Made by a program: the position numbers and the translations under genes. Positions 3 through 62,676 of a stretch of DNA of 64,000 nt are shown here, in pieces. The notes beneath the pieces are model-generated. The model saw nothing but the letters and a program-made list of their open reading frames with translations. It was not told where the DNA came from and made no database searches. Source of the DNA: a virus (Duplodnaviria; Caudoviricetes); IMG/VR virus record IMGVR_UViG_2821042281_000001, positions 1,161-65,160 of that record. One strand, given 5' to 3'. The first letter of the stretch is position 1. Each line of letters begins with the position of its first letter.

Positions 3-476
3 GGCGAAGCGGATAGCGGGGTAACGAATATCCGAAACCTCACCTCGCCTCATTGGCGACGCTGGCAAGGCGTTGAAAGCCGGTGCGTCGTTCCTGCAAC
101 CTCCTTTTCCGAATATGGGCAGGAACCGGACCCGAAGACCAAGCGCAAGCCGCTGCACTGGTTCGCTCTGAACGAGGAAAAGCCGCTATTTGCTTTCGCC
201 GGAATATGGACAAGTTGGAAGGGTGTAAGGAAGAAAAAGGAAGGGCCGGTCGAGGTCGATATCTTCGCGTTCCTGACCACCGAGCCGAATGCCGTGGTGA
301 AGCCGATCCACCCAAAGGCAATGCCAGTTCTTCTCCGCACCACAGAGGAAATCGACACATGGCTGCGGGCTCCCTGGAACGAAGCCAAGGAAATGCAAAA
401 GCCCCCGCCCGACGCTGATCTTATCGACCTCACGCCGAGTAATGACAACGAGAAAGCGCAGCCGAGTTTGTTTTAA
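3..476 (+). CDS. SOS response-associated peptidase (SRAP/HMCES family), 5'-truncated by the window
   Basis: Frame open from base 3: VTNIRN..RCVVPATSFSEY..FAFAGIW..FLTTEPN..IHPKAMPV. Confidence 0.9.
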   Translation, partial: GEADSGVTNIRNLTSPHWRRWQGVESRCVVPATSFSEYGQEPDPKTKRKPLHWFALNEEKPLFAFAGIWTSWKGVRKKKEGPVEVDIFAFLTTEPNAVVKPIHPKAMPVLLRTTEEIDTWLRAPWNEAKEMQKPPPDADLIDLTPSNDNEKAQPSLF

Positions 477-655
477 AATCGACGCTATTGAAGCACCGGC
501 TTTTTTAATTAATTTGCAACCACTTATACTCTAATGATTAAGCATAGAATTCGGTCATCGGTTGTTTACCATTGGTTTTAATTCGGCTGCAACGAATGCG
601 AGGATAGGTTGCGCCCAGTTCAGCAACGAACGGGCCAACTTGAAGGGGCAAAGAC

Positions 656-838
656 ATGACGAATATTTTCTCGCGTTTCCGTAAAAACGAATCTGGCGCA
701 ACTGCAATTGAGTACGGCCTGATCGCCGCTTTGATGGCGGTTATTGTGATCGCAGCCTTTACCGGTCTCGGCACCGCATTGAAGAACAAGTTCACAGAGA
801 TTGGCACCACGATCTCGACCGGCGAAGCGCCGAAATAA
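656..838 (+). CDS. flp: Flp/type IVb pilin
   Basis: ESG|ATAIEYGLIAAL prepilin motif with hydrophobic helix. Confidence 0.93.
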   Translation: MTNIFSRFRKNESGATAIEYGLIAALMAVIVIAAFTGLGTALKNKFTEIGTTISTGEAPK

Positions 839-886
839 CCTTCAGTTCTGAGAGGAGGCTTCGGTTGCTCCTGAGCCTCCAAACTA

Positions 887-920
887 GGCCGCCTGTCGAA
901 AGATGGGCGGCCCTTTTTTT
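887..920 (+). terminator. Intrinsic terminator after pilin
   Basis: GGCCGCC..GGCGGCC hairpin followed by a T-tract. Confidence 0.7.
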
Positions 921-979
921 GCTCCATCCAGCTACCCGCTTGTCTTACCCGCCCTACCTTCGTCAAAAAATGAGGAAGG

Positions 980-1198: not shown

Positions 1199-1201
1199 TT
1201 G

Positions 1202-1226: not shown

Positions 1227-1231
1227 CTAAA

Positions 1232-3215: not shown

Positions 3216-3467
3216 CCCGGCAAGTGAGCCAACACGAAAGAGAAATTAAAATGAATAACCATGAAGAGAATATAGGCCTTGCCATTCCGAACACTAACTT
3301 TAGCGTGGTGAAACATGCTGTTGCTACGCAGCGCGATATTGAAGACGCGCACAAACAGATGTCATCCCCCTCAGAAGATTGGACAAAGCTTTCCAATATA
3401 CTTAGGCGGTCATGCGGGGGCTCATCGCGAAAACGTTCTCTTCGTAGATAAGCACTTAGGATGCGCG

Positions 3468-5222: not shown

Positions 5223-6515
5223 CTAGGCCACCCTCCTCTCGCTCGCCACATTATCATTCGCGGCCACGGGCACACGCGCAGCGCCCTTGACCATCGCCGG
5301 CGTCATCCTGTCCCTGGCAACTTCGCCGTATTCTTTGTGATACGTAATACGCTTGGCTGACCTGCCGGACAGCCAGCCGCCGCTTGCGGCATAGTCATCC
5401 TTGGCGGCAAGCGTTTCGTGGCGCTCGACATACATCAGGTTTGTCTTGATGCCTTCGTCGGAATGCTTATGGCCAATGTGGCAGTAGGCCGACAAACTCA
5501 GGCCGTATTCTTTGCGGAACAGGCCAGCCATCGTCACGTCGACGTTGTTGATAGTCCGCTTGTCGCCGTGATGGTAAAACAGCGCTGTCTTGCCCCACGA
5601 GTAGACGTGGTAGTGCATCGGTGAGTTGTCAACGCTTATGCGAGGCTCGTGCTCGTACATGGCCGCGAGCATCTCACGCAGCCATGCCGACGATGCCGGA
5701 TCATGATTGCCGGACGCCATAATAACGTGAACATGCTGGTGCTTCTGCAGAAGCATGTCGATGATGCGCCGGACTGTGCGGATGACGACGCGAATAACCT
5801 TCTGCAAGCGGCTATCCGCGTCTAGGACGTGCCTATGAGCAGGCGTAACGCTTTCGAGGCTATCATGATGCATCAGATCACCCAACTGGGCCAGCACAGC
5901 CGTGTGCGCTTGCGGGGCGGCGGCTACGGCTGCAGCGAACCAGTCCAGTAGCAACTGCTCTGCAATGCGAAGATCGTAATCATCTCCCGTTTCTTCACGC
6001 CATGCCAGCATACCGAAGTGACTGTCTGTCACGACGAACTGGTTAAGTAGTTCGGACGCAACATGCGCAGGAGGAGGCGTAATCGTGACGCGCGGTAGGC
6101 TTTCGGACAGCGCTGCAACAGTTGCATCCAGAATGGCGCGCTGCTGTTGTACATCAGCCCGCTCCATAATGTGCTGAGTAATCACCCGGCCTTCGGCATT
6201 CACGAGCGTCGTCTTGCCTTTGACAGCAAGGCCTGCAGTCGGCTCATAAACTGGACCAGCCTCTTTCGTCTGGCGCACGTAAGTGCCGTTCGGCGTCTCG
6301 GTCAGGCTTTTGATCGCATAGCCGGGCAATGTCGGTGACGGACCCAGCAGCCCAATCTCAGCGGCCCGCTTAATGCTGTCGTGAAATGCCGACTTCTTTA
6401 TGCCAAGCGCCGCCGCAGCCTTAACCAGCGTGCCGTGCTCGCGGTAAGCCTCCGCTCGGCGCAGGAGTTCTTCGTGTGAAAGGCGCGCACCCGCGCCCTG
6501 TCTGTCATGGGACAT
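5223..6515 (-). CDS. Calcineurin-like metallophosphoesterase with N-terminal HTH
   Basis: TDSHFG, LGDLMH, SGNHD, HHGD, IGHKH motifs; AAAALGIKKS HTH. Confidence 0.85.
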   Translation of the reverse strand: MSHDRQGAGARLSHEELLRRAEAYREHGTLVKAAAALGIKKSAFHDSIKRAAEIGLLGPSPTLPGYAIKSLTETPNGTYVRQTKEAGPVYEPTAGLAVKGKTTLVNAEGRVITQHIMERADVQQQRAILDATVAALSESLPRVTITPPPAHVASELLNQFVVTDSHFGMLAWREETGDDYDLRIAEQLLLDWFAAAVAAAPQAHTAVLAQLGDLMHHDSLESVTPAHRHVLDADSRLQKVIRVVIRTVRRIIDMLLQKHQHVHVIMASGNHDPASSAWLREMLAAMYEHEPRISVDNSPMHYHVYSWGKTALFYHHGDKRTINNVDVTMAGLFRKEYGLSLSAYCHIGHKHSDEGIKTNLMYVERHETLAAKDDYAASGGWLSGRSAKRITYHKEYGEVARDRMTPAMVKGAARVPVAANDNVASERRVA

Positions 6516-6693
6516 ACAGTCTCCTCGTGTTTGGTTTGGTAGCCGACTCGCGGCGCGGATTGGTCGTCCGATAGTGAAAAGAAAATGAGCCTCGAGATGA
6601 GATGTCAAGCGGGAATAAGAAAGACGCCGCGTAACCTTCAGGCAAGGTTCATCTCCCAGCTTCTGTTTTGAGGATCTGGAAAAGGAGTAACCA

Positions 6694-6873
6694 ATGAACG
6701 AAGACCGGAGGCGTGAGCGCCGTGGGCGCCCTAAAAATCCGATTGAAAAGCTGAGTATTTCCATTCGGTTGGAAGCGGAATTGGTGCGCCGGATACAAGC
6801 AACTGATCCCAACTGGCGTGAGAATATCGCCGATCTGGTCAGGCGGGAATTTCAGTTAGAAGATACGAAATGA
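6694..6873 (+). CDS. Orphan BrnA-antitoxin-like RHH protein (59 aa, not in ORF track)
   Basis: AAGGAG SD; RGRPKNPIEKLSISIRLEAELVRRIQATDPNWRENI. Confidence 0.7.
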   Translation: MNEDRRRERRGRPKNPIEKLSISIRLEAELVRRIQATDPNWRENIADLVRREFQLEDTK

Positions 6874-10554: not shown

Positions 10555-11304
10555 TCACTCAACCACAGCTTCGTGAGACGCCACAGCTTTCGTATAAGCG
10601 ATCAAATCTGCATCGTCATACTCAAACTCGTAACCGTAATATTGAAGCTTTGATTGAATTTCTGAGAGTTCTTTGTTTGACATAAGCATGCTCTCCGCAA
10701 AAATTACCTCAGGATGAAATTTGTCCAAGTCCATGGCGGATAGTATCGTATAGTCATGCCCCTCGCAGTCACTTAAATATACATCGTAATCCTCGCAATG
10801 GGATTCCCTTACAAATTTATTCACTTCTACTACAGAAACACTTCTTTCAATAGTTTTTTCTTGTATCTTAAGAAAATTATCTTCTGATATTAATATTCCG
10901 TCTATCGCGTTTCGATTGCGCTCCAAGGTAGATATTCCCACTGCCCACTCTGGTACGGTTTTATTCAAGATTGCCTCAGGGTCGACCAATCGAATATTGG
11001 ATATTCCATTGTGATCTGAAATCGCCACATTGAAAAATCTAGCCCCCGGGATATGCTGATAGTTTTTTACGAGCAAATCAAAGTATTCAACGATTGGCTC
11101 TACAAAAACCCCAGACACGCCTTTGTGAGTAGAAATAAACCTGAATAACGGGTCGAACCTTTTCCCATCGCACGCTCCGACCTGAAGAACGCGCACAGAT
11201 TGATTTCTTGACTCATACAGCCGTTCTATGCATTGAAGAAGGCGGGCAGTTGATGGTCGCAACTCGGTGGGCAAAATAGCTCTCCGTTGTTCTGGAATTG
11301 TCAA
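10555..11304 (-). CDS. FkbM family methyltransferase
   Basis: LQVGACDG, VFVEP, NVAISD, SDCEGHDY. Confidence 0.85.
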   Translation of the reverse strand: MTIPEQRRAILPTELRPSTARLLQCIERLYESRNQSVRVLQVGACDGKRFDPLFRFISTHKGVSGVFVEPIVEYFDLLVKNYQHIPGARFFNVAISDHNGISNIRLVDPEAILNKTVPEWAVGISTLERNRNAIDGILISEDNFLKIQEKTIERSVSVVEVNKFVRESHCEDYDVYLSDCEGHDYTILSAMDLDKFHPEVIFAESMLMSNKELSEIQSKLQYYGYEFEYDDADLIAYTKAVASHEAVVE

Positions 11305-12977
11305 TCTTGGTTGTTATTGGGCTGGGGATACCAGAATTGTCTATTTTAAAGGCGATTATCAAGCGCTACGCGAAGCGGATTGATAGCGAATCATCGCAAC
11401 AGCAGCAGAGCCATTTCGGCACGCCAGATATAACCACTCCACAACCTTACCATACCTCGGAAGCCGTAGTCTTTCAGCAAACGCATTCCGGTTTCGAAAT
11501 CGATGGGCAACTTTACAAATTTAGTGTTCGCCCCTCGGAGAGTGTTAATGTTGAAGTTAGCTCGTTTTTAGTTGGTGATTTCGAGATGGTTGCCGACCCA
11601 TCACGAGCGGCCCTCGCAGCATTTCGTTTTGTCGATACCGAAGGCAATACTGTATTCCCTCTCGATAGCACCCCTATCAGCCCCGCGGTAGGGCCTTATA
11701 TTTATCTCTCTGGCGACAGCGGCACTCCTAAAACAACTCAAGTGGTTCTCCAAGTCCCCCCTAACGCTAACAGTCTCGAAATTACGTTGAAAAAATGGCG
11801 GAAAGAATTAATCGCTTACGCCAGCCACCCACCTATTGTTTCAATTTTGGAAGGCGCAACTCACGATTCTCAAATTGACCACGTTAGCTCCGCGTTGTCC
11901 GCGCTGGGTGCAGATGACAATCTAACCGTGATCTACAGTACCTCCCCCCTGATGTCGCACCCCTCATTAGGATTACGTCCGAACCGCCTGGCTCGGGAGA
12001 TGGAGAGACGCGGACATACCGTCTTCTTCCTGCCTTTCGGGCGCGTCGCTAATAGCGAAATCCGATACTCAGAGAAGATTTGGCAGTTCCCAAGGGATAT
12101 CCTGCCAGAGATTTTTGACGCGATCGCTGCTTCGAAGCACGGTAACGTCACATTTATTTGCAGTTCGTTTCCAGATATTCAAGCTGTTTGCGCAATTGAT
12201 TTAGCGAATACCTATGGCTGGCGTACGCTGTACGAAGTACGCGACGATATGGAAGAGTTTAACCGCGTCGGTTACTCCAAATGGTACCGGGCGAGACTGG
12301 AAAATTATGTTTGTCGCAAAGCAAAGTACATTACCACAGTCAGCCCTCGATTAGCTACAAAGATGATCGAGAACGGGGCGGAGCCGCAGAAGGTAATGGT
12401 AATACCTAACGGGGTTGAGGCAGGTTTTGTTCAGTCGACAGAAAAGCTGAGATCATTAGACACGCTTAACAGTCGCCGATCGTCTTCCATAATCGGTTAC
12501 ATCGGCCACCTGACCCCATCTTGGTTCGATTGGAGCCTGATAATAAGCACTGCGGTTCATAGGCCGGAATGGACATTTGAGATCATCGGTCACGGCGCTC
12601 CAGGTAATCTCGACCTACCCCAGAATGTCATTCTTCTGGGGCCAAAGACCCACGAGGAATTCATTGAAATTAGCCGGAGATGGCGGATCGGTATGATACC
12701 GTTTAAACCATCGAAGCTTACTTACGGTGTCGATCCTAACAAGCTCTACGAGTATCTCGCCGTCGGATTGCCGGTGATTAGCGCGCCTATGGGCAGCGTA
12801 GATGCAAGCCCTTTAACGTTCGTTTATCAATCGAGATCAGAATTTTCCCAAGGAATTGAGTATCTGTTTAACCAACGGTACGATCACGGCACCGCTCGAG
12901 ATTTGAATCAATATATTGATAATAGTAAATGGGTGTCTCGCCTTGATGCAACTTTGAAATTCATTCAGGTGGCATAG
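11298..12977 (+). CDS. GT-B glycosyltransferase (GT4-like) with extra N-terminal domain; start uncertain
   Basis: VIPNGV, IGYIGHL, PNKLYEYLAVGLPVIS. Confidence 0.85.
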   Translation: MSILVVIGLGIPELSILKAIIKRYAKRIDSESSQQQQSHFGTPDITTPQPYHTSEAVVFQQTHSGFEIDGQLYKFSVRPSESVNVEVSSFLVGDFEMVADPSRAALAAFRFVDTEGNTVFPLDSTPISPAVGPYIYLSGDSGTPKTTQVVLQVPPNANSLEITLKKWRKELIAYASHPPIVSILEGATHDSQIDHVSSALSALGADDNLTVIYSTSPLMSHPSLGLRPNRLAREMERRGHTVFFLPFGRVANSEIRYSEKIWQFPRDILPEIFDAIAASKHGNVTFICSSFPDIQAVCAIDLANTYGWRTLYEVRDDMEEFNRVGYSKWYRARLENYVCRKAKYITTVSPRLATKMIENGAEPQKVMVIPNGVEAGFVQSTEKLRSLDTLNSRRSSSIIGYIGHLTPSWFDWSLIISTAVHRPEWTFEIIGHGAPGNLDLPQNVILLGPKTHEEFIEISRRWRIGMIPFKPSKLTYGVDPNKLYEYLAVGLPVISAPMGSVDASPLTFVYQSRSEFSQGIEYLFNQRYDHGTARDLNQYIDNSKWVSRLDATLKFIQVA

Positions 12978-12982
12978 AATAA

Positions 12983-13960
12983 ATGTCTAAGATACTATCG
13001 ATCTATGTAAATTGCAGTCGCGGTGGAATGGGGACAGTGTATCTCAACCGCGCACTGAATAATCCTGGCGAACACCACACTCTAATTTTCGTTAGTGACA
13101 GGGGTGGATACCATCTGTTCACTGGTTATACAAATATCGATGTGCGCATCATCAGGAAAGACAGGTTGAAATCCTACATCGCATATCTTACGGTCAATTT
13201 TCCATTTGATGAGATCAGGATCACCTCTCTTCCAGAAGTAGTTGAACCTATTTCAAAGCGATTCAATCCTAAAATTGTTTACGAATTTCATACGTCTGTC
13301 CCCGAGATTGTATCTTCCGAACTGACTAAGTTTGACATTGCAAACATTAACTCGATATACGTCCCCAGCGAATTTTCGAGGCAAATGCTGCTTGAGCAAC
13401 TTCCACCAGAAGTAAACAGCCTAGTAGAAGTGCGGGCGAATCAACTCAATACCAACAACATTGACTACCAACCAAGAGATAATTTTCTGTTTTCCAACCA
13501 GATTCCGATACTATGGATCGGTAGATTTGATGCTGGGAAGAATGCTCGGGATTTCCTGAGAATTCTGTCGCAACTGCCAGAGTTATACATCGGTATTGTT
13601 GTGGTAAGCTTGGAGAGCGATCCGAGCAGGCTTGATGATTTTTTGTCGGATGCGTTCGCTTACGGGGTCGAAGACCGAGTCAAAGTGTATTTGAATTTGT
13701 CCCATGAACAAGTTTTCAGTTTATATAACTCAGTCGCTCGCCATAATGGTTATTATTGCAGTACATCATTAAATGAATCGTTCGGCTTCACAGTAGTGGA
13801 GGCCGCAACGCATGGACTTCGGGTGGTCGGATATGATGTTGGTGCTCTGAGTGAGCATCAGAGCAATCTGATTACTCTGTTTCCAGTAGGAGATAATCAA
13901 TCTATCGTGAACCATATACTGGAAACATCTGGCCAAACGCGCGAACCGCTATACGCTTGA
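12983..13960 (+). CDS. GT4 family glycosyltransferase
   Basis: LWIGRFDAGKN, NESFGFTVVEAATHGLRVVGYDVG. Confidence 0.9.
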   Translation: MSKILSIYVNCSRGGMGTVYLNRALNNPGEHHTLIFVSDRGGYHLFTGYTNIDVRIIRKDRLKSYIAYLTVNFPFDEIRITSLPEVVEPISKRFNPKIVYEFHTSVPEIVSSELTKFDIANINSIYVPSEFSRQMLLEQLPPEVNSLVEVRANQLNTNNIDYQPRDNFLFSNQIPILWIGRFDAGKNARDFLRILSQLPELYIGIVVVSLESDPSRLDDFLSDAFAYGVEDRVKVYLNLSHEQVFSLYNSVARHNGYYCSTSLNESFGFTVVEAATHGLRVVGYDVGALSEHQSNLITLFPVGDNQSIVNHILETSGQTREPLYA

Positions 13961-41132: not shown

Positions 41133-41160
41133 GAAATTCCTTTGGATGGAGAAAACAGCC

Positions 41161-42365: not shown

Positions 42366-42372
42366 GGCGACC

Positions 42373-43256: not shown

Positions 43257-43315
43257 CCTCATCTCCTCGTGTATCGTGGTGGTAACCCACCAGTTGGTGG
43301 CTGGCGGGGTGTTGG

Positions 43316-43546: not shown

Positions 43547-43725
43547 AACACCTTCTCCATACAGGCGCGCATAACCCCGCGCAGTTCATAGAAGTTGCGT
43601 GCTTCGTCGATGGCATTCAGAAGGTACTCGCGGTCCACCTGCTTCCTTGCCTCGTCCAGCCCCATCCCTTGCTCCCGCAAGCGTTTGATGCACGGCACGT
43701 AATCCGCGGGATCTAGCTTCGCCAT
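43543..43725 (-). CDS. Small hypothetical protein
   Basis: Coupled start/stop. Confidence 0.6.
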   Translation of the reverse strand: MAKLDPADYVPCIKRLREQGMGLDEARKQVDREYLLNAIDEARNFYELRGVMRACMEKVL

Positions 43726-44258: not shown

Positions 44259-44422
44259 CATTGCTCCTCGTGTTTCGGTGCTTGGTTTTGGTAAGTTAAC
44301 ATGCCTCGCGGCGCATCCCGTTAATGGATTGGTTTATTTTGATAAACTTAATCCTACTGTTTTAGTGTAATTAATACTGGATTTAACTGTTGCATGCGAC
44401 GGTTGTTTATGTATATTCGCCC

Positions 44423-46551: not shown

Positions 46552-46554
46552 TGA

Positions 46555-47109
46555 ATGGACCTCAAACTTCAACCGAGTGATTATATTGCTGGTGTTTCTG
46601 CCATCGGAGCCGCTTTAGCGGCGTGCTTCGCGTGGATGTCCGCAAAGCAATCAAAGCGACAGGCAGACGCAGTATTGGGCGACGTGGAGCCAAGTTTTGG
46701 CGCGTATCAGAACCCGCCAGATGAGTATTCAGAGCAAGCTTCATTGAGCATTGAGATTGTCAATCACAATAAGAGGCCACTGCTCATTGAAGAGCTCTCA
46801 TTCGAATACCCTCCGTCGGTGATCATCTTCTCCGATTCAGAGACGTTACGAGGTGTCATTGAGTCTATTTTTGATGCCATGAAGGACGGTCCGCGCATCA
46901 AACGATTTGAAATTCCACTTCGCTTAAGAGGACGTGGGACAAATGAGCAATCGAGCTTACTAACGATACCGATGCGATGTAGCTGGAAGATCGGCGAAGA
47001 ACGGGCACCGATCAACTTCTACGTCAGAGTTCGATACCGGCAGGAAGGCGATCGCGATACGGAAGATGCATACATTGGCGTGCAAATACTGCCTCCGAAA
47101 ATCATTTAA
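46555..47109 (+). CDS. Membrane-anchored moron inserted antisense between exonuclease and helicase
   Basis: N-terminal TM; AT-richer codons. Confidence 0.65.
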   Translation: MDLKLQPSDYIAGVSAIGAALAACFAWMSAKQSKRQADAVLGDVEPSFGAYQNPPDEYSEQASLSIEIVNHNKRPLLIEELSFEYPPSVIIFSDSETLRGVIESIFDAMKDGPRIKRFEIPLRLRGRGTNEQSSLLTIPMRCSWKIGEERAPINFYVRVRYRQEGDRDTEDAYIGVQILPPKII

Positions 47110-48613: not shown

Positions 48614-49651
48614 TTAGACCCTCATCGGCATCAGCACGCCAGTCCACTCGCCCTCACCTTTGATGACAGCCGGAGAACCTGCATCGCCGAGAGCAAAGCG
48701 CACATTTGGTTCATCCAACGCGCCAAGCATGTCGTTGACGTAGCGGGCGTTAAAGCCGATTTCCAAAGGCTCGCCTTCAAACTCAATCGAAACTTCGTCG
48801 CTGGCCTTGTCAGCCAGTATCAGCCGCAGCACATCGCCGACGGCGAATTTCACGGCGCGCGATTTGTCGTCCGCTACAGCGGCGACACGTTCGACCGCCT
48901 TCATAAGCGCCTGCCGGTCGACGGTAAGCACATTGCTATTACCGGATGGAATGACGCGCACATAATCAGGGAAAGTGCCGTCGATCAGCTTTGATGTAAT
49001 AACCGTTGAGCCAGACGTGACGCGCACCTTGTTTTGGGAGAGTTCAACCGTAACAGCGCCCTTCGGCAGCAACCCGACCAGCTTGCGCGGCAGGATCACG
49101 CCGTATTCTATGGTGCCTTCCGGCCCTGTGTTGCGCATCAGCCGGTGCCCGTCGGTTGCGACCGCAACCAAACGACCGTCGACAACATGCAGATAGACGC
49201 CATTGAGATAATAGCGGGTTTCTTCCGTCGAAATGCAGTGCACACACGGCGCCACAAGCGCAGCCAGATCGAGCTCGAGCGTCGTGTCGAACTTCCCGGC
49301 GCTGAACGATGGAAAGTCTTCGGCGGGCAAGACATCGAGCTTGTAACGGCTGCGACCAGACGCGACCGTAAGGCGGCCTTCATCCAAGGCAAGAGTAACG
49401 TCACCCGTTGCGCGCTTTGCAATGTCCGCAAGCATCTTGCCGGGCACTGTTACGCTACCCGGCTGGCAGTCGAGCACCGGTAGACTGGTCGTTATCTCCA
49501 CGTCCAGATCGGTCCCGGTCAGGCGCAGTTGGCCGTCCTCAACAGCCAAGAGTACGTTGGTGAGAATGGGGATTGTGTTTCGGCTTTCGATGGCACGGTT
49601 GACGGTAGCCAAGGCGTGCGCGAGCTGTGAGCGGTCAATGCTGACTCTCAT
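48614..49651 (-). CDS. dnaN: Phage-encoded DNA polymerase III beta sliding clamp
   Basis: TIPILTNVLL, GTDLD, ATDGHRL, DGTFPDY, VLMPMRV. Confidence 0.95.
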   Translation of the reverse strand: MRVSIDRSQLAHALATVNRAIESRNTIPILTNVLLAVEDGQLRLTGTDLDVEITTSLPVLDCQPGSVTVPGKMLADIAKRATGDVTLALDEGRLTVASGRSRYKLDVLPAEDFPSFSAGKFDTTLELDLAALVAPCVHCISTEETRYYLNGVYLHVVDGRLVAVATDGHRLMRNTGPEGTIEYGVILPRKLVGLLPKGAVTVELSQNKVRVTSGSTVITSKLIDGTFPDYVRVIPSGNSNVLTVDRQALMKAVERVAAVADDKSRAVKFAVGDVLRLILADKASDEVSIEFEGEPLEIGFNARYVNDMLGALDEPNVRFALGDAGSPAVIKGEGEWTGVLMPMRV

Positions 49652-49676
49652 CAAAGTCTCCTCGTGTGAAGGTTGG

Positions 49677-50093
49677 TTAGTGGCGGTTCTTGGTGAGTCC
49701 GCCAGCGTCGCCACGAAAATCCACGTCTGGCAATATCGACTGCGGCTTGAAGATAACGCGATAGTGGTAGGCGCTCACGTCGGCGCTTTCCAACTGCTCG
49801 ACGAACGCGCTCGTGTTGTCGGACAGCACGAGCGTATGACGCTTGTACGCGCTCGGGCCGGTTTTGCAGATCACATTGAATGCCGTGCCGCCAGAATTCA
49901 GGTCCATGGAGCAGCGGCCTTCTATCGTCAGCATGTAGCTGTCGGTGATACCGTTATAGAAAACCACACGACGGCTGATTTCGAAGTTATCAGCGGCTCG
50001 CTTGATGTTTTCATTGGCCACATTCGCGTCGCTGTTGCAGCCGGCCAGCAAGGCAAGGGCGAGTGCGCCCGCAAGCATCTTCAGCTTGTTCAT
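49677..50093 (-). CDS. Phage lipoprotein
   Basis: Lipobox LAGC; RRVVFYNGITD..IEGRCS. Confidence 0.85.
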   Translation of the reverse strand: MNKLKMLAGALALALLAGCNSDANVANENIKRAADNFEISRRVVFYNGITDSYMLTIEGRCSMDLNSGGTAFNVICKTGPSAYKRHTLVLSDNTSAFVEQLESADVSAYHYRVIFKPQSILPDVDFRGDAGGLTKNRH

Positions 50094-50150: not shown

Positions 50151-50336
50151 TTAGGCGGCCTTCCGGGCCTTAATCGCTTCATCAGCGAGCAGGCACAGCG
50201 CCATCGCCATATCGGTGTTCATCTGTACTTTGGACCGTTCATATTGACGTGCAACGTCAGTCAATCCGATGACTTCCCCTAGCCCGCCAGTTTCCAGATA
50301 TGCCGTTGCTTCCGCCACATCGTATTCATAAGCCAT
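50151..50336 (-). CDS. Small hypothetical protein
   Basis: ACACGAGGAG leader; ends KAA. Confidence 0.6.
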   Translation of the reverse strand: MAYEYDVAEATAYLETGGLGEVIGLTDVARQYERSKVQMNTDMAMALCLLADEAIKARKAA

Positions 50337-50405
50337 GCGCATCTCCTCGTGTTTGGTTCGGTACGGTGGTTGCTACCGGCGCTTTCGCGCCAGTAGCGGG
50401 TTGGC

Positions 50406-50963
50406 TTAGCCCCAAGGGCGCTTCTTTTGCCCGCCTGCCGCAGCAGCCGCCGGTGCCGGCTTGTTGCTGTTAGCCGCGGCCGGTCGGTTGTCATTGGCCG
50501 GACGGGCCTGCGCTGCAGGCTGGTTGGCGTCGATTGAAGGCTGGGGGACGTTGCCCTCATCGGGGAAGTAGTACTTCTTGATCTCGGCGCGAGCCGGGTA
50601 TTGGCCGTCCTTGGAAGGCTTTCCGAGACCAATCTTTGCCGTAAACGCCTTGAAGTGCAGTTCTTCGGAATCCTCGACTTCCGAGACGCCGATCGCTCGG
50701 CAAAGGCTCGCGAACTGACGCTGGCCGATCTCTTGCGCCTGCGCGTTCTTGTGTTCCAGATTGTAGAAATTGAAGACCTTGCGGCCCTTGTATTCCTCGG
50801 GGCGAAGAACCGTCATCGTTGTCTTGAGGCCGGTTCCGTTCGCGCCTTCCTTGACCTCCGACGCCTCGATTTCCAGTTCATAGTCGCCGTTCGGCAGCTC
50901 TTCGTAGTCCCGCTGCTCCGTATCGTGAGCAGTCGCATCAAATCTGCTGGCTAGTTTTGCCAT
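50406..50963 (-). CDS. DUF669-type ssDNA-binding protein
   Basis: LPNGDYELEI..YKGRKVF; disordered tail ending PWG. Confidence 0.85.
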   Translation of the reverse strand: MAKLASRFDATAHDTEQRDYEELPNGDYELEIEASEVKEGANGTGLKTTMTVLRPEEYKGRKVFNFYNLEHKNAQAQEIGQRQFASLCRAIGVSEVEDSEELHFKAFTAKIGLGKPSKDGQYPARAEIKKYYFPDEGNVPQPSIDANQPAAQARPANDNRPAAANSNKPAPAAAAAGGQKKRPWG

Positions 50964-51006: not shown

Positions 51007-51249
51007 TTAAGCCTTCGCCCGATGGATAGCCGGGCGGAAGAACCCGCCGATGAAACCGAGCGAAGCGCCGATCTGCCACATCGCAAGGCCTGCCGCGTTG
51101 ATGCCAACCGCAGCAAGGAACGCATGGATCGTTTCTGCGAAAAACAGGCCCACGACCCAGCCGACGAACGCGCCACCGAGAACGCCGATGAGCGGTGCGA
51201 AGAAGAGGATGGCTGCGGCAGTGACGATGATAGTAGATAATTTTTCCAT
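51007..51249 (-). CDS. Small membrane protein
   Basis: Hydrophobic; GASLGFIGGFF. Confidence 0.7.
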   Translation of the reverse strand: MEKLSTIIVTAAAILFFAPLIGVLGGAFVGWVVGLFFAETIHAFLAAVGINAAGLAMWQIGASLGFIGGFFRPAIHRAKA

Positions 51250-52034
51250 CAAGCCGCCTCCCTCTGGTCATTGTCGTTCGCAACCGGCCAGAACTTGGCA
51301 ATGTCGGCAAACCCCTGCCCTTTGCGGTAAACGACACTGTCGGGCATCGAATAACGGTTCTTGGCGTTGAACCCCGCCGCCTCGTTGAAGTGCACCTGGC
51401 GCTCCTTCCCGCCCTCGGCGTGGCTAACCTTCGTCTGGCGCGCCACTTCCTTTTCCTTGATGGAGATGCGGTAATTCATGAACGCAACAACATCGGACTT
51501 CTCACGCACCAGGGCATTGGCCCGCTTGTGCAGCTTGGGCTGGTATCGACTGTATGGATCTGTCGTCGGGCTGTCGAAGCGCACGATCTCGGGGTGGGCC
51601 AGCATGACGACATACATGCCCGCTCGGGATAGCGCCGACACGGCGGCCATCAGTTCGTTCCATTCGGTATCAGCTTCCACGTAGCCTTTGCCGAACCCAG
51701 CATCCTCGATGCCATTGATGCCAAGGCGGGCAGCGGTCGCACGCCAAACAAGCGGTTCCAGCCCATCGAGGCTGTCGATAATCACGGTGCGCCGGTCGTG
51801 CTCTTCGGTCAGCAGTTCGCCGATGACGTTTAGCAGATCGTCGAAGGATTCAATCGTGCCAGGAGTTGCCATTTCGATATCAGACGGCGGGCGCTCACCT
51901 TCGGTTGCTAGATAGATCGGGTCCGGGAATTCTGCCGCGAGCGACGTCTTGCCGATGCCGTCGACGCCGTAGAGAAGGATCACAGGCGGATCGTTTCTCT
52001 TGGTCGACTTGAGGCTTGAAAGAGATAGAGCCAT
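51249..52034 (-). CDS. AAA_24/Sak4-like recombination ATPase
   Basis: GVDGIGKT, IIDSLD, AKNRY. Confidence 0.9.
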   Translation of the reverse strand: MALSLSSLKSTKRNDPPVILLYGVDGIGKTSLAAEFPDPIYLATEGERPPSDIEMATPGTIESFDDLLNVIGELLTEEHDRRTVIIDSLDGLEPLVWRATAARLGINGIEDAGFGKGYVEADTEWNELMAAVSALSRAGMYVVMLAHPEIVRFDSPTTDPYSRYQPKLHKRANALVREKSDVVAFMNYRISIKEKEVARQTKVSHAEGGKERQVHFNEAAGFNAKNRYSMPDSVVYRKGQGFADIAKFWPVANDNDQREAA

Positions 52035-52048
52035 AGGTCTCCTCGTGT

Positions 52049-52544
52049 TCAGTAGGTGTGGTGGGTAACGGCGATTGCGGTGATGACGGCCGCAAGAATG
52101 AGCCAGCCTACAAGCCATGCAGGCGGGCTTGTGAGGGCGGCTGCGCAGTTGTCGCGCGGCGGTCTGAGTGGCATCAGTGCGCACCCCACAGATACAGCAG
52201 CCCGTAGAACGGCAGCAGCAGGTTCCAGAACAGGAAAGCTGCAATTGTCGTGGCGATTGCCAGCGCGAACGCTGCAAGCGCCAAGGATTGCCCGATGCGA
52301 CCGACACCGGGCTTTCGCCCGGGATCAATGTGCGGCATGCCAGCCGTGGCTTTTGTGGCGAATGAGATCATGCCAGCACCCATGCGTAGAAGCCGACCGT
52401 CAAGGCGAGCGCAGCTACCACTGCCAAGCCCCAGAGAAAGCGGTCGCCAAGGCCGAGCGTGGTTTCCGGCTCATAGAACGAGTCGCCGTCCACGTAGTCT
52501 TTGGGCGCATAGTTGCGCGTGTGGCTGTACGTGGTGGAGGTCAT
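52049..52544 (-). CDS. Three tandem small single-TM proteins (52368-52544, 52174-52371, 52049-52174)
   Basis: Each has a C-terminal hydrophobic segment and coupled start/stop. Confidence 0.5.
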
Positions 52545-53332
52545 GCGGCCCTCCGAATAACCACATCGGCAATGCGCGAGTCAGCGAGAACGAACACACC
52601 AAACTTCTGGCCCAGATATTTGACGGCAAGTCGTTCAGCCTCGTCGGTGGCGGACTCTTCGCTTATATGAACCTTCGGCTTTTCCGACGGTTTGGGCTGG
52701 CCGTTTTCGATCAGAGCGACGATGGCGGGTTTGGTCGCAGGCGCATTGTCATTGCTGGCTGGATCGTCGACCCATTCGGCGATGAGGTCTCTTTCTGATG
52801 GATTGCCGCCGATATCGAACGCTCCGTCAACTGCCCATGCAGCGTCGGTTTCATCAACAAAGCAGAACTTGCCCAATCGCGGTCGCACCCACCGCATCGG
52901 CCCAACCTTGCGCCCATCGCGGGTACGATAGAATTTGCCGGTCTCGATGGTGAGGGCAGGCGCAAGCTCAAGGTTATCCCAACGCACATACCAGGTATGA
53001 TCGCCTATACGCTCTGTTTCAAACTTCACGTAGCAATCTCGATCGCGCGCATTAACGTCCTCGACAGTGCCGATCTCGTCGGCCCTTGCCCATGGGAGAT
53101 AATCCGAAAGCACTCGCACCCGATCACCCACTTTGAAGTCAGGCTTGCCGGTTGTTTCCGCAGCGGGCACAAATTCGTCTTCATCGCGCGATCTCTCGTC
53201 GCCATCGTTGTCGATGAATTCAACGTACGCGCCATCGATCCCGGTTACCGTGAAAATATCGCCGACGCGATATCCGCCAAGCGGGTCGCGCTGCAGGATC
53301 TTTACCCGATCCCCCACTTTAAACTTAGCCAT
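52541..53332 (-). CDS. Mosaic protein with two FKVGDRV (SH3/KOW-like) repeats
   Basis: Internal repeat; GKFYRTRDGRKVGP. Confidence 0.75.
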   Translation of the reverse strand: MAKFKVGDRVKILQRDPLGGYRVGDIFTVTGIDGAYVEFIDNDGDERSRDEDEFVPAAETTGKPDFKVGDRVRVLSDYLPWARADEIGTVEDVNARDRDCYVKFETERIGDHTWYVRWDNLELAPALTIETGKFYRTRDGRKVGPMRWVRPRLGKFCFVDETDAAWAVDGAFDIGGNPSERDLIAEWVDDPASNDNAPATKPAIVALIENGQPKPSEKPKVHISEESATDEAERLAVKYLGQKFGVFVLADSRIADVVIRRAA

Positions 53333-53634
53333 CACGCTACTCCCCTCGTCTTGGTGTTTTTCGTAAGCTTCACCTTCTTGGTGAAATCGACCGGAATGAC
53401 GTTGTCCTCTTCAGGCTTGTCAGCCTCGACACCGCCGTCATCCTCTTCAAAATCTGGCTCCACTTCGAAGCGCGAGACTTCAAGTTGCACAAGGCCGGTG
53501 CCGGGGATCATGAAACGCACAGTCAGCCAGCGAAAGCTGTCGCGCTCCTCGACAATGATGCCCTTCCATTTCCACAGCTTGTGGACGACGATCTCGCCCG
53601 GAAGATCCCAGCATTCGCCGCAATCGCATGTCAT
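53332..53634 (-). CDS. Hypothetical protein
   Basis: Coupled; DNVIPVDF. Confidence 0.7.
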   Translation of the reverse strand: MTCDCGECWDLPGEIVVHKLWKWKGIIVEERDSFRWLTVRFMIPGTGLVQLEVSRFEVEPDFEEDDGGVEADKPEEDNVIPVDFTKKVKLTKNTKTRGVA

Positions 53635-57984: not shown

Positions 57985-58329
57985 ATGGAGCGGAACCCCA
58001 CCACCGAACTTGAGAATGCGCCTCTGTCGCGCGGACAAAAGAATATCGTCGATGCGCTGGCTGCTATTTATCCGCGCCGCATTTACATCAACGACCTCGT
58101 CGACAACGTCTATGCGTTCGATCCGAATGGCGGGCCAGACAACGCACATAATACAGTGCGAGTGCAAATCAGTCGCCTCCGCAAGCTCCTGCCCTCGTTT
58201 GGCTGGACCATCCCGATGAACCATCGGGGCGCGGGCAATCACGGGTTTTATCGCCTCGAGCCAGTAGCCGCCAACGACAACCGACCGGTAGCGGATCGGG
58301 CGGCACCAGACCGGAGGGCTGCAGCATGA
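57985..58329 (+). CDS. Stand-alone OmpR/PhoB-type winged-helix protein
   Basis: NTVRVQISRLRKLL..GFYRL. Confidence 0.8.
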   Translation: MERNPTTELENAPLSRGQKNIVDALAAIYPRRIYINDLVDNVYAFDPNGGPDNAHNTVRVQISRLRKLLPSFGWTIPMNHRGAGNHGFYRLEPVAANDNRPVADRAAPDRRAAA

Positions 58330-59258
58330 TCTCAAACAACGAAAGGGAGTTGCGGGCTGCCTTAAACCGTTCACTTTCCGATCAAGCTATGACGGCATTC
58401 CTTGCGATGCCTGATGATGAAAAGGCGCAGTTCGCCAACCGCTTCAATAATTTTTTCAGCAAAGTTTGCCGCGCTCAGTGGCGCATCGAAAGGGCTGCAG
58501 CATGAACCGCGCTTTGCTTGAACTGCTCGCCGACGACGAGTTCGAAACGGAAACCGACACACCGAAGGCCGGCAATGTCGAGCCTATGCGCCGACCTGAC
58601 TACAAGGCCAGGAAACATGGTCGCCCACAGCCGTGGCTACGTTATGCCGCCCGCGAAGCGGTCGAGATGACCGTCGTTGTAGCCTTTTGCGTTGCCGCGT
58701 GCAGCGTTGGGTTGGGGTTCTCCGCATGAGGCACGAAAGATAGCGACGGGGCGGTTAAGCCCCCGATCCTCCAAGAATGACAGCCCTTGCGCATCTAGCG
58801 CCACGGCTTTTTGCACCCACCAAAACACGAGGAGACCCTATGTCCAGATGCATCACACACGCCGTTATGGCGCCCATCCTGAACGCCGCCGAATTCCAGC
58901 AGCAAGGCACGACCGCTGCGCAGGTCCTGTCTATTTCAAAGGCAGTGCGCGCTCTTGGCTATCACTCCAAAGCTGAGACGCTACGCAACACCGCTTTCGA
59001 ACTGGCGCGCATTACTGGCGTTCGGTTCCGCTATGGGGCTCCGCGCCAGCGTCGCAATCCAGCCAATGACAACCGCCGTCGGCTGCGCGCAGCATGACTA
59101 CCGCCACCACCCGCCGCATTGACGCGGCATATCTCAACGCGCTGCGGCTTGGCCCGCAGCGTATCGGATATCCAGGCATCCCTTTGCCTGTTGCCTGTCG
59201 TCTGGCGGCAACCGGTAAGGCGCGAGTGCTTGGCAATGTCGTCGAGGTGCGCCCATGA
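58326..59258 (+). CDS. Four small early ORFs (58326-58505, 58502-58729, 58840-59097, 59094-59258)
   Basis: ATGA coupling; ACACGAGGAG leader at 58825. Confidence 0.6.
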
Positions 59259-60130
59259 CCATCATCATTTCTGACCAGGCCGTGAATATCGCCCTGAATA
59301 CTTGGTTCGGTGGTATTCCTGCGTGGCGCAACGATGCCACGGAGCGTCTCAGAACAGAGATGCGCGCCGCCCTCACCGCAGCCGCCCCTCACCTAGCAGC
59401 GGTGCGGGTGAAGAAGCTGGAGTGGGGTAATGCGCGCATAACAGAGGATGGGCGCGAAGCGGAAGACGCAGAAAGCCCAGTTGGTCGATATATCGCGACT
59501 GATACAGGCTGGTTCCTTCTCGGGCAAACAGGATACAAAGTTGAGCGCGGCTTATACCAAGCCAAAGCCGCCGCACAGGCCGACTATTCCGCTCGCATCC
59601 TCTCCGCGCTTGAGCCTTCCGGCTGCAAGACTTGCAACGGGCACGGAATTATCGGCGGCATGTACCGTGTTGGCGACGGCGATGTAGACGGATGGGAAAA
59701 ACCTTGCCCAGATTGTGAGCCATCGCCGCAAGCACAATCGTCAGAGCTAAGCCGCAGGCTAGAAGAATTCCTCAAGGAAAATGAGGATTGCTTTTTCGAC
59801 TGCGAAATTCAGACAGTCAAGGACGCCATTAGCGCCCTCGCGTCCCATCCAGTAGCGGATAAGCCCGACGAAGCGGGGGCGCAGGGGGAAGTGAAAGAGC
59901 GCATCGAGTTTCAGCGTGGATACGTTCTGGCCTGCGCAAACATCGTAAACCTGCATGGCCCTGACGTGAACGTGGCCGAAGGTTTCGCGCAACTCAACAT
60001 ATCAAGGGACGATCTGAAGCGCCTCGACTTATGCGATTACGATCAGAACGCCATCCACGCTCTTGAGGATTTCTGGGGCTTGGAAAAGCTGTATGTCCCC
60101 TCTGCACCAGCTTCGGAGGGCGCGGAATGA
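59255..60130 (+). CDS. Mosaic early protein with CxxC zinc motif
   Basis: VKKLEW..AKAAAQADY; CKTCNG..CPDC. Confidence 0.7.
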   Translation: MTIIISDQAVNIALNTWFGGIPAWRNDATERLRTEMRAALTAAAPHLAAVRVKKLEWGNARITEDGREAEDAESPVGRYIATDTGWFLLGQTGYKVERGLYQAKAAAQADYSARILSALEPSGCKTCNGHGIIGGMYRVGDGDVDGWEKPCPDCEPSPQAQSSELSRRLEEFLKENEDCFFDCEIQTVKDAISALASHPVADKPDEAGAQGEVKERIEFQRGYVLACANIVNLHGPDVNVAEGFAQLNISRDDLKRLDLCDYDQNAIHALEDFWGLEKLYVPSAPASEGAE

Positions 60131-60519
60131 GCAAGCACCTCTGGGAAGTAAATCACCCGTATTACATGTCGGAAGGGAATTATTTCTCGAACGACTGCCA
60201 TACCGAATTCAAATCGTGGGCTGAATTCCTCGATGAGTTTGGCGATAGCGATCTGGATTACAACTGGTTCGTTCGGTGGGATTGGCTTGAAGGCGAAGAT
60301 TGGGGCGCTGGAGCCTACAACGGCGACGACTATTACCGTCACGCTCGCTTCATGCTGCAATTGATCGGACAGCGCAAAGCGAAGCTGCTCTCGTTTGAAG
60401 TGGCCGTTTGCCGTGCCGATGAACCCGCCATCCTCGAATTTCTCAAACCGCGTTGGGAGTACATGCAAACCATGTGGCTGCCGCTTTCCCACCCATCAGG
60501 AGGCGACCGTCATGGCTGA
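60127..60519 (+). CDS. Hypothetical protein
   Basis: HLWEVNHPYY..VRWDW. Confidence 0.72.
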   Translation: MSKHLWEVNHPYYMSEGNYFSNDCHTEFKSWAEFLDEFGDSDLDYNWFVRWDWLEGEDWGAGAYNGDDYYRHARFMLQLIGQRKAKLLSFEVAVCRADEPAILEFLKPRWEYMQTMWLPLSHPSGGDRHG

Positions 60520-60742
60520 TCACTATGGATGGCGTGCGCAGGGCGCAATCGGTGACTATCACCTTCCGCCACGCCCATTTCTATATCGCGTCCCTGTCAT
60601 CAAGCATTTCAAATATGCCTACGACATGTGGAAACTTGATCGATGGTATTCCGCCGTCCCAGGCATTCGTACCGGATATGACGAATGGTGCCTTTACGGC
60701 TGGTGGTATGGCCTGACCATGGAGGACCGTCATGGCGAGTGA
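60512..60742 (+). CDS. Small aromatic-rich protein
   Basis: GGAGG SD; overlaps neighbours. Confidence 0.55.
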   Translation: MADHYGWRAQGAIGDYHLPPRPFLYRVPVIKHFKYAYDMWKLDRWYSAVPGIRTGYDEWCLYGWWYGLTMEDRHGE

Positions 60743-61457
60743 ACTACTGCCGTGCCCCTTCTGCGGTGGCACTGACCTTTCGTCCGGTGGCGATGATAAA
60801 TTCGTCGGTTACTTCTGCAAGACCTGTCAGGCAACAGGCCCGAACCATTACGGTTCCCGCGATTGGAACACCCGCCCCGCGCCTGCCGCTACAGATACGG
60901 GACTGAAAACAATCGGGTTTGTCCCGCCGATGTTCGTTGAAGGCAAAGGTGCGGATTACAACGACATATTCCGTAGTGTCAGCATTGCCGAAAACTACAC
61001 TGCTCTCGTCACCCGCTCGCAGGCTGTGGAGCTATTGGCGGGGCGCGATACCGTAATCGAAATGCAGGCCGACAGCATCGATAAGCTGGAAAGGAAAGTT
61101 CGGCACTGGCAGGAGCGCGACGAGAAGGCTGAGGAGCTATTGGCGGCGAAGGAAGCCGAGCGCGCCGAACAATGGCGTTTGCGCCGCGAGATGGAAGCTG
61201 ACCGCGACACACAGAAGGCCATAGCTACCAGCCTCGAAACCGAATTGGCGGCGGAACAGGCGGAGAAGGAGAAGATTGCAGCTGCGGTGAAAAAATTGGA
61301 AGCCGCATGGCGTGACCACTCACAAAAGGTTGCTACTCTCGAAGCCAAGCTCGCGGCGGCTGAAAAGGCGCTGGCGGAAGCTGATGAAGCGTTGCAGGCA
61401 GACGCCATTGCATCCGCCCATGCAGCTATCCGCGCCGTGCTGGGAGGGAAGCCATGA
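60732..61457 (+). CDS. Lar-like zinc ribbon plus coiled-coil protein
   Basis: ELLPCPFCGG..CKTC..WNTR. Confidence 0.7.
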   Translation: MASELLPCPFCGGTDLSSGGDDKFVGYFCKTCQATGPNHYGSRDWNTRPAPAATDTGLKTIGFVPPMFVEGKGADYNDIFRSVSIAENYTALVTRSQAVELLAGRDTVIEMQADSIDKLERKVRHWQERDEKAEELLAAKEAERAEQWRLRREMEADRDTQKAIATSLETELAAEQAEKEKIAAAVKKLEAAWRDHSQKVATLEAKLAAAEKALAEADEALQADAIASAHAAIRAVLGGKP

Positions 61458-62676
61458 TCGATCCAACTGAGCGCATAGTTGCTGCTGCCGTCTATCACGG
61501 TGCAACGATCAGCCTGCCTCCGCCAGCTCGTCATGACACGATCCTCAAGTCCATGCTCTTCGTCATGGGATTTGAAGACGCTCTTGTCCCTCACGACAAG
61601 CAGGGCTTCCTGACTTCAACGGGACGGTTCGTCAATCGGGTTGAAGGGTATCACATCGCCTATCGAGCCAAGCAGCTGATCGCAAATACAGCCGGACGTC
61701 CAGAGCTTTATTCGGAGGATTTGTGGTGACCCACGATGAACTCATCGAGAAGGTGGCTAAGGCGATAAACGGTCCCTTCCGTTCTCTACCGGAAGGATCG
61801 CCGCACACGTTGGAGCAACTTCGTGATATCCGTTGGACGCAGATCAATGGCATGGAGCGAAATCTGTGCTTGGCAAGCGCAAAAGCCGCCATCTCCAACA
61901 TCTACGCCGCTCTACAGGAGCCGACAGAGGCGATGAAAGAGGCTTGGGACTTGGATACGGGGCGGTGGATTTCCGAAGAAATAGAAGACCCATACCACCC
62001 TTGGCGCGTCATGCTCGCCGCATCCTGCCTGTCGCCAAGCCCTGAAAGGCGGTGAGTGAGATGAAGCTGGATCGTGAATGGAGACTTGTTTGGAAGCCCA
62101 TGAATGAGATCATGGACAGCGTTACGATCAAGGCTGGCGTCCGCTTGAACGCCAGCTTGAAAGATCGCGTCGACTGGCTGATATCCAAAGCCGAGATAAA
62201 TCCTGAAATGGAACTTCAGTATTTCGAAGCAGGCCGCGCCGCACTGCGGGAAAGGGAGTGAGGATGTCAGCGCGAGACTACAAGCGAGTATTTATCGTCA
62301 TCGCGACGCTCGTAGCCATATACCTCGCCTACCAGCAGATTCCGCACATTCACATCGGAGAGCGTGCGCAAGGCAGCTACGAGGGCGGCATCGCATCTGA
62401 CGAGGATGTTTCAAAATCGGTTCGAGAGGCGCAGGAAGCCGCGGATAAGGCAAGCCGTGCCGGCCCGGCAGAAAGCAGCAAGTAATGGCGTCATACACCT
62501 TTGCTGACACCGAACGATGGTTGGACGCCATAGCCGGTGTGATTGCCTGCTTTCCGGAAACAGAGCAGAATCTCCTGCCACTTTATGAGCGCGTGGAACG
62601 AATGCAGCGCAGTCTGGCTGCAAACGATAATATTCGCGACCGCATCAAATCACGGCTGCGTCGAACGGCAGCGTGA
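61454..62676 (+). CDS. Five small early ORFs (61454-61729, 61726-62055, 62052-62261, 62264-62485, 62485-62676)
   Basis: Chain of coupled ORFs converging on the integrase. Confidence 0.65.

Follow-up and report, generated by a model that had tools for sequence, protein, structure and literature searches.

Why should a single provirus encode the same short peptide, Ala-Asn-Asp-Asn (ANDN) or its variant SNDN, in 13 of its proteins, and why should ANDN be the peptide with which the transfer-messenger RNA (tmRNA, or ssrA) tags of its likely host group begin? The question is raised by a stretch of DNA, here called the window, that comprises 64,000 of the 65,160 bases of the IMG/VR provirus record IMGVR_UViG_2821042281_000001 and has a GC (guanine plus cytosine) content of ~55%. 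We hold, with moderate confidence, that these peptides mimic the ssrA tag and are encoded in the phage genome itself, and that they would bind the host adaptor SspB and, where followed by a terminal AA, would act as degrons for the protease ClpXP.

A six-frame scan of the window recovers 14 in-frame copies of [A/S]NDN in 13 long open reading frames (ORFs), namely, 11 of ANDN and 3 of SNDN, in addition to two ANSN variants. A first-pass annotation, made from the sequence alone, had reported the motif or its variants in about a dozen proteins, and all 13 proteins that it named carry the motif where it was said to lie. The corresponding DNA word, GCNAAYGAYAAY, is present 12 times in the window. 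Shuffles of the window that preserve dinucleotides (n = 100) contain it 0.31 times on average and never more than twice. Of the 12 words, 11 read in frame with a long ORF. The one chance match is probably the AANDN word that reads out of frame within the integrase ORF (63381-63395, minus strand), which fits the chance expectation. In a 400-kb sample of host chromosome, 123,274 residues contain no ANDN and two SNDN, such that the enrichment supposed by the first-pass annotation is borne out against both shuffled and host sequences.

The conserved object is the peptide, not the DNA word, because the copies in the window differ solely at synonymous third codon positions and because Asn codon use at the motif is ordinary: among 303 unique ANDN contexts in the group of related phages, AAC accounts for 56-57% of Asn codons at the motif and for 57% overall, with somewhat more bias at the Asp codon (GAC, 78% at the motif versus 56% overall). 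Selection thus acts at the peptide level, as had been proposed from the differing codons of the copies. Many copies do lie 30 to 60 bases upstream of the start of the next gene, and one is out of frame in the integrase ORF, as might be expected if ANDN marked a DNA or RNA element near gene ends or were a by-product of Ala- or Asn-rich tails; with nearly all words in frame, variation that is synonymous and follows general codon use, shuffles that yield so few copies, and further copies near N-termini and in linkers, such an origin is exceedingly improbable, and a nucleic-acid signal or compositional artifact is effectively excluded by the in-frame copies, the synonymous variation, and the ordinary codon use.

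Measured from the A or S of [A/S]NDN to the last residue, 8 of the 14 copies lie 10 to 19 residues from a C-terminus. On the plus strand, tails with the motif end a SRAP-domain protein (PSNDN at 435-449, 12 residues from the end QPSLF; ORF 3-476, cut at the window edge), a 114-residue protein (AANDNRPVADRAAPDRRAAA, of the form AANDN...RRAAA, at 58267-58329; ORF 57985-58329; family 33 of the clustering described below), a 106-residue protein (PANDNRRRLRAA at 59059-59097; ORF 58777-59097; family 16), and a 63-residue protein (AANDNIRDRIKSRLRRTAA, of the form AANDN...RTAA, at 62617-62676; ORF 62485-62676). On the minus strand, they end a DNA repair exonuclease/metallophosphoesterase (phrog_704; AANDNVASERRVA at 5223-5264; ORF 5223-6812, whose true start is probably near 6488), a C5 cytosine methyltransferase (41316-41363; ORF 41316-42389), an MT-A70 methyltransferase (AANDNQDLLGRVAS at 42681-42725; ORF 42681-43262), and a Sak4-like AAA_24 ATPase (VANDNDQREAA at 51249-51284; ORF 51249-52328). 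The exonuclease is 69% identical to p044 of Rhizobium phage 16-3, which has the same tail. Each of these tails is an in-frame part of its gene that closes at an ordinary stop codon, not a tag added cotranslationally by tmRNA, and the tails are therefore mimics and not true ssrA tags.

Two further carriers on the minus strand have tandem copies 22 to 35 residues from ends other than AA: an SF2 helicase with AANDN and ASNDN eight residues apart (44827-44937; ORF 44827-46572), which ends DDDIPF, and a DUF669 protein resembling single-stranded DNA-binding protein (SSB) with PANDN and the variant AANSN (50406-50501; ORF 50406-50963), which ends KKRPWG. The remaining three copies, again on the minus strand, stand outside C-terminal tails, with one near an N-terminus (PANDN at residue 40 of a 266-residue protein; 36889-36903, ORF 36220-37020), one at residue 21 of a 77-residue protein that ends EEAA (AANDN; 37176-37190, ORF 37017-37250), and one in an interdomain linker of a 264-residue repeat protein (ASNDN, 71 residues from the end RRAA; 52745-52759, ORF 52541-53335). 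Two functional labels given to carriers on first pass could not be retained: the 266-residue protein, called a late regulator, has no match in Pfam or PHROG, and the match behind the label of winged helix for the 114-residue protein (E = 0.0037) misses the cutoff. The 63-residue protein adjoins, and is convergent with, the integrase gene and has a weak helix-turn-helix match, so that it could be an excisionase; the annotated Xis of phage 16-3 has ANDN near its N-terminus.

The available structural evidence places copies in flexible segments of their proteins. The Pfam domains of the MT-A70 methyltransferase and of the AAA_24 ATPase stop before the tails, and the linker copy (the A of ASNDN is residue 193 of the 264-residue protein) is flexible in an AlphaFold2 model, in which the predicted local distance difference test (pLDDT) score is <50 at residues 191-199; the predicted fold of the MT-A70 protein, with a mean pLDDT of 51.8, is too poor to inform on its tail.

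The bacteria in question possess both the tag that is mimicked and the adaptor that would read it. In the five host genomes from which tmRNA tags were extracted, the tags are ANDNKAQGYALAA (three genomes), ANDNNAKGYALAA, and ANDNYAEARLAA; each of the five starts with ANDN, spans 12 to 13 residues, and closes with AA. SspB is encoded in every one of these genomes, near the tmRNA gene. One of these SspB proteins matches the solved SspB structures from Agrobacterium (2NYS) and Caulobacter (2QAS and 2QAZ). More broadly, the pattern ANDN-x5-8-AA-stop is present in 145 of 301 alphaproteobacterial genomes (144 of 300 without the unpublished genome G045), in 140 of them exactly once, whereas the reversed control pattern gives 6 matches; that the single match is the tmRNA gene was confirmed in genome G002 (chromosome 1) only and is taken for the others from their tag-like sequences. 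The listed alphaproteobacterial tags are invariant at the ANDN head and at the xAA end only. It is the head, and in many tails the terminal AA as well, that the phage copies, with the two spaced as in native tags. Neither an SspB-like protein among the phage-encoded proteins nor a tmRNA gene in the provirus record was found.

The tag of Caulobacter is AANDNFAEEFAVAA, and deletion of Caulobacter sspB slows the degradation of ssrA-tagged proteins (PMC9393093); the tag of Escherichia coli is AANDENYALAA (PMC9963277). The first-pass annotation had taken the Caulobacter tag as its reference, which proves apt for the shared ANDN head and AA end but not for the host, as the likely hosts are Brucellaceae or Rhizobiaceae. 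Its proposed comparison with the host tag itself is answered by the five tags and five adaptors above.

That the window is a provirus of the group of Rhizobium phage 16-3 is established through protein searches: the core of its Sak4 ATPase is 78% identical to that of 16-3, and the two have in common the genes for the DnaN sliding clamp, a Cas4-type exonuclease, the SF2 helicase, and the DUF669 protein. (When 20 kb of the window was compared with GenBank phages by megablast, methylase fragments were the sole matches, and no close phage was returned.) Closely related prophages occur in Ochrobactrum and in Brucella-named species of Ochrobactrum type, as well as in Falsochrobactrum, Limoniibacter, Rhizobium, Shinella, Consotaella, Sinorhizobium, and Paenochrobactrum, the nearest being a prophage of an Ochrobactrum sp. 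whose ATPase is 97% identical; the phage is likely a temperate phage of Ochrobactrum- or Rhizobium-type bacteria. We gathered 77 related IMG/VR loci via the ATPase, making 98 loci with 21 from bacterial genomes (locus L055 is 16-3 itself), and clustered the 3,153 ORFs called in these loci and the window into families.

The motif is widespread in these relatives, with 530 copies of [AS]NDN in the 1.33 Mb of the 77 IMG/VR loci and 459 of 467 unique contexts falling within ORFs of at least 60 residues. In all, 44 protein families have it. Of the 105 families that number five members or more, 21 are among these, and at least half of the members are positive in 12 families; the 106-residue protein carries it in 30 of 30 members of its family, the helicase in 78 of 90, and the SSB-like protein in 68 of 70. 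Family alignments show tails appended after conserved domains, with ANDN tails that are gained and lost and whose length and sequence vary within a family. Such turnover is visible in Sak4, in the Cas4-type exonuclease family (the window copy of which lacks the motif), and in family 7, which has two alternative tails. The residue preceding the motif, weighted by family, is A in 37% of tails, P in 33%, and V in 19%.

Two properties of the related tails tie the head to the C-terminus. First, the commonest distance between them is 12 (37 of 304 unique family/tail combinations), and 96 of the 304 fall at a distance of 10 to 14 and a single one at <10, which suggests a lower limit of four residues for the spacer between head and end. 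Second, among the 152 tails no longer than 20 residues, 85 end in AA (helicases ending ...PF make up 24 of those that do not), compared to 183 of 1,887 motif-free ORFs in the same loci (9.7%) and 17 of 469 in the host sample (3.6%).

The terminal AA could be a by-product of translational coupling. The stop codon of the MT-A70 gene overlaps the next start (ATGA) and is preceded by the Shine-Dalgarno sequence GGGAGGG, the ATPase tail is overlapped by the Shine-Dalgarno sequence (AGGGAGG) and TTG start of the next gene, and several tails have GGAGG-like sequences and ATGA or TTGA overlaps with the following gene. The R, E, and G that often stand just ahead of the AA, at positions -3 and -4, are owed in part to these translation signals of the overlapping downstream gene. 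We reject coupling as the source of the AA itself. Among genes with a stop/start overlap, AA ends 52 of 73 motif tails (71%) versus 96 of 654 others (15%), and among genes with no overlap, it ends 18 of 45 motif tails versus 87 of 943 others; with the excess present in both classes, the AA end goes with the ANDN head.

The distribution of the motif along the phage genome is strongly asymmetric. In 80 loci centered on the terminase gene, located by tblastn, the 497 kb on the early side of that gene contain 176 copies and the 580 kb on the virion side contain 13, making the motif ~16-fold rarer on the virion side. The first-pass annotation had seen none in head, tail, or lysis proteins. As regards head and tail proteins, this is correct for the window, in which none of the 24 ORFs of the virion block (14000-34300) has the motif, but it does not extend to the relatives, 16-3 included, in which the portal has a tag-like tail. 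Ten of the 13 virion-side copies are full tag-like tails that end the ORF just downstream of the terminase, which in the window and 16-3 is the portal. The annotated 16-3 portal ends ANDNQEDEAEAA, the window portal lacks such a tail, and tag-like portal tails (ANDN, six to eight residues, and AA) recur in more distant relatives (L165, L166, L171-L173, L176, L179, L183, L187, and L188, ~1.3 kb past the terminase, and L209 at 3354-3392). The portal is the one recurrent virion protein with the motif, which is otherwise restricted to nonvirion genes; its tagging would fit the removal of unassembled subunits.

The motif is likewise restricted to phages of alphaproteobacterial hosts. A Synechococcus phage with a homologous Sak4/helicase/methylase module has no copy in the 29.3 kb fetched, whereas 18 copies are present in 40.8 kb of the Rhizobium etli phage RHph_TM3_3_14B and 17 in 50 kb of phage 16-3; as the module is homologous, this comparison indicates that the motif tracks the group of hosts and not the family of genes. 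Nor is it a general feature of host sequence. The 4.4-Mb genome G002 contains 25 copies of the 12-base word against 17 of a reversed control word, and of these 25, 1 is in the tmRNA gene and 8 are within ~52 kb around its 16-3-like prophage. Two more ANDN...AA-stop tails lie 1.4 kb apart elsewhere in this genome, outside the 16-3-like prophage (G002:C2:262647-264119), and may mark a second mobile element using the same trick.

A pattern scan of IMG/VR for the motif returned at least 120 stretches, and the 79 new loci examined among the matches listed give no prevalence figure. Among those listed, 32 of the 79 have no copy in an ORF of at least 60 residues, and 21 of these 32, with a GC content of <0.5, look like chance matches; several loci with a GC content of >0.5 also carry several copies (e.g., L251), their homologues in the 16-3-like set being few or absent. 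Several of the matches are probably host tmRNA genes beside proviruses. On five viral contigs that differ in composition (L229, L231, and L259, with a GC content of 0.38; L232; and L263), ORFs end like genuine tmRNA tags (e.g., ...ANDNYASEMALAA). These ends probably belong either to ssrA genes of the host at the edge of a provirus or to tmRNA genes carried by phages.

What, if not SspB, might read the peptide? ANDN could dock its carriers on a different partner, whether a protein of the phage, the sliding clamp of phage or host, another protease, or a chaperone, in which case it would resemble the tag by coincidence or convergence. Many carriers do act in replication, recombination, or DNA modification, the phage encodes its own DnaN sliding clamp (48614-49714, minus strand), and the tails contain other short motifs as well. 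The clamp itself can be discounted as the reader. The β-clamp-binding consensus is Q-x-x-L-x-F, a hydrophobic pentapeptide, and ANDN is polar; the tails have separate clamp-type motifs, which are QPSLF in the window SRAP protein (435-476, plus strand) and QASLF and QLSLF in relatives, where the ends QASLFGDAA and QLSLFGDAA often come just after ANDN (family 39, e.g., L004 and L087; L330, 30698-30745). A QxSLF-type motif thus accompanies ANDN within one tail, which rules out ANDN itself as the clamp signal, and some tails are arrays of two or three short docking motifs. Any reader other than SspB would also leave unexplained the AA ends, the native spacing, and the restriction to phages of hosts with ANDN tags, and the phage encodes no SspB-like protein; we regard a different reader as quite unlikely.

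The copies without AA raise the alternative that the peptides serve chiefly to soak up SspB or to saturate ClpXP, which would block the host's processing of ssrA-tagged or other ClpXP substrates or stabilize other phage proteins. Proteins made in quantity, such as the SSB-like protein and the helicase, would take up most of the adaptor, as their tandem AA-less copies, in the window as well as in most members of their families, and a head identical to that of the host tag would lead one to expect. A decoy has no need, however, of dozens of different carriers, nor of ANDN joined to a terminal AA at the native distance. The arrangement of the adaptor also bears on this point. SspB binds cargo at the far ends of its dimer (bioRxiv 10.1101/2020.06.12.148478), and copies eight residues apart therefore probably cannot bridge one dimer. 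We judge that titration is unlikely as the principal role of the peptides, although it overlaps tag mimicry and may coexist with degradation. Both the DDDIPF end of the helicase (44827-44870, minus strand), which we take to resemble the C-terminal tip of bacterial SSB, and the KKRPWG end of the SSB-like protein are conserved across their families.

The same AA-less copies could instead bring replication proteins to dimeric SspB and ClpX for the assembly or remodeling of complexes and not for their destruction. ClpX is known to remodel the MuA transposase, and the carriers include probable coworkers (the helicase, the SSB-like protein, Sak4, exonucleases, and methylases), several of which lack an AA end. 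But most short tails have the degron-like AA end, and many of the proteins concerned are small, unrelated to one another, and unconnected with replication, which makes scaffolding very unlikely.

We thus return to tag mimicry and to how it would work. Chien et al. and Lessner et al., both in 2007, reportedly found that the ANDN head is what alphaproteobacterial (Caulobacter-type) SspB reads. In the mechanism that we propose, the ANDN head, carried in a flexible tail or linker, would dock in the peptide groove of host SspB, which, tethered to ClpX, would bring the tagged phage protein to the protease; where AA follows at least 10 residues after the head, ClpXP would engage the C-terminus and degrade the protein. 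Early, replication, recombination, and DNA modification proteins would then be short-lived, at levels set by the free capacity of SspB and ClpXP. The benefit could lie in mopping up leaky expression in lysogens and in clearing early functions, with short lifetimes for nucleases, methylases, and recombination and regulatory proteins. The first-pass annotation had likewise proposed that early and replication proteins are routed through SspB and ClpXP, as a timer or as protection against leaky expression, or else that SspB is titrated. Of this proposal, the mimicry is shown, together with its peptide-level selection, its spacing, and its association with AA ends, and the binding of SspB, the degradation, and the purpose are inferred. 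Tails ending VA, CA, or AS would perhaps be weak, adaptor-dependent signals, and the copies with no AA end (in the helicase and the SSB-like protein, near the N-terminus, and in the linker) would bind SspB without the role of a classical degron. Some early ORFs lack ANDN and yet end in AA (e.g., 37217-37726, 40563-41255, 43725-44261, and 50151-50342), and these ends may be adaptor-independent ClpX signals.

Several observations weigh against this interpretation. Of the eight window tails with at most 20 residues, four end in AA and the rest in VA, CA, AS, and LF, and three copies lie outside C-terminal tails altogether. There is no AA end on the helicase, the SSB-like protein, the SRAP protein, both methylases, or the exonuclease, and the tandem copies of the first two, like the N-terminal and internal copies, cannot serve as degrons of the classical C-terminal kind. 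Just before AA, the phage tails mostly have R, E, or K, whereas native tags have a hydrophobic residue there, so that the phage tails may be weak ClpX signals. Tail sequence is partly constrained by the Shine-Dalgarno sequence and start codon of the following gene, and the naive calling of ORFs brings spurious ORFs into the background sets. Finally, to destabilize so many replication enzymes looks costly.

The coexistence of AA-terminated and AA-less carriers allows a more elaborate possibility, which we offer tentatively and consider improbable: an adaptor-gated, proteome-wide stability switch that senses free SspB and ClpXP. Leaked proteins would be destroyed, and once the AA-less tandem carriers became abundant, they would soak up SspB and stabilize all tagged proteins. 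If there were such a switch, every AA-terminated carrier would be destroyed at low expression (lysogen leak or low multiplicity), and lytic commitment would be all or none and coupled to the load of stalled-ribosome products in the cell.

The virion block (~14 to 34 kb, minus strand) contains Pfam matches for tail tip, tape measure, HK97-type capsid, portal, and large terminase (TerL) proteins; it is followed by a tRNA-Met gene (35109-35184), by the early/replication block (35.5 to 62.7 kb), and, at the right end of the window, by a tyrosine integrase (62645-64000, minus strand). Enzymes of the replication block include a PrimPol/DUF3987 primase, the C5 and MT-A70 methyltransferases, the SF2 helicase, and a Cas4-type exonuclease, and the block also encodes a Gp157-like protein, the DnaN clamp, the DUF669 SSB-like protein, and the Sak4-like AAA_24 ATPase. 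A cassette at 10555-13960, with an FkbM-type methyltransferase and two glycosyltransferases, has a GC content at third codon positions of 0.41 to 0.51, versus 0.6 to 0.7 elsewhere, and may serve lysogenic conversion of a surface polysaccharide.

The classic precedent is the regulated proteolysis of single phage regulators; what would be new, if our interpretation is right, is a host quality control tag copied onto dozens of unrelated proteins. This would be a new viral way to set protein lifetimes, would supply a large natural set of SspB clients in alphaproteobacteria that do not arise from tmRNA, and would provide ready-made graded degron tails for use in Rhizobiales. We found no description of proteome-wide tag mimicry in the literature searched, a scope outside of which most subscription papers lie.

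Against the native ssrA tag/SspB/ClpXP system, the phage peptides share the ANDN head, the length of 12 to 13 residues as the commonest spacing, and, in part of the tails, the terminal AA, and the host has the matching adaptor. They differ in that they are encoded in genes and do not come from trans-translation, that the middle of the tail is unrelated to that of the tag, that the residue before AA is usually charged, and that some copies are internal, N-terminal, or tandem. Phage proteins recognized by ClpX through short terminal peptides are themselves familiar: MuA and lambda O are natural ClpX substrates with C- or N-terminal recognition motifs, MuA being named as a ClpX recognition class (PMC8138137). 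Those are single proteins with motifs of their own, unlike the copies of one host tag spread here over a proteome. In engineered SspB-dependent degrons, a weak C-terminal signal combined with an SspB-binding head leads to adaptor-dependent degradation (bioRxiv 10.1101/2023.11.08.566101); by analogy, the phage tails ending VA, CA, and AS could act likewise, the difference being that those constructs are synthetic and these tails are natural.

Closest in kind is the integration-dependent immunity of mycobacteriophages, in which the integrase and the viral form of the repressor have C-terminal ssrA-like tags (PMC9635641). There, as here, temperate phages have genome-encoded ssrA-like tags, which in that system couple phage decisions to the protease capacity of the host, a logic shared by the benefit proposed above. 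That system has two tagged regulators and loses the repressor tag upon integration, whereas 13 proteins of the window and 44 families, enzymes included, are tagged here, and the mimicry covers the adaptor-binding head as well; the window integrase, for its part, ends ...PFDAAVI and has no in-frame ANDN. Pseudomonas phage pf16 encodes an SspB homologue (PMC5587285) and so also deals with the SspB pathway, but it carries the adaptor, whereas the present phage carries copies of the adaptor's ligand and no SspB gene. In the literature searched, the two-protein tags of mycobacteriophages and this phage-encoded SspB homologue are the nearest published cases.

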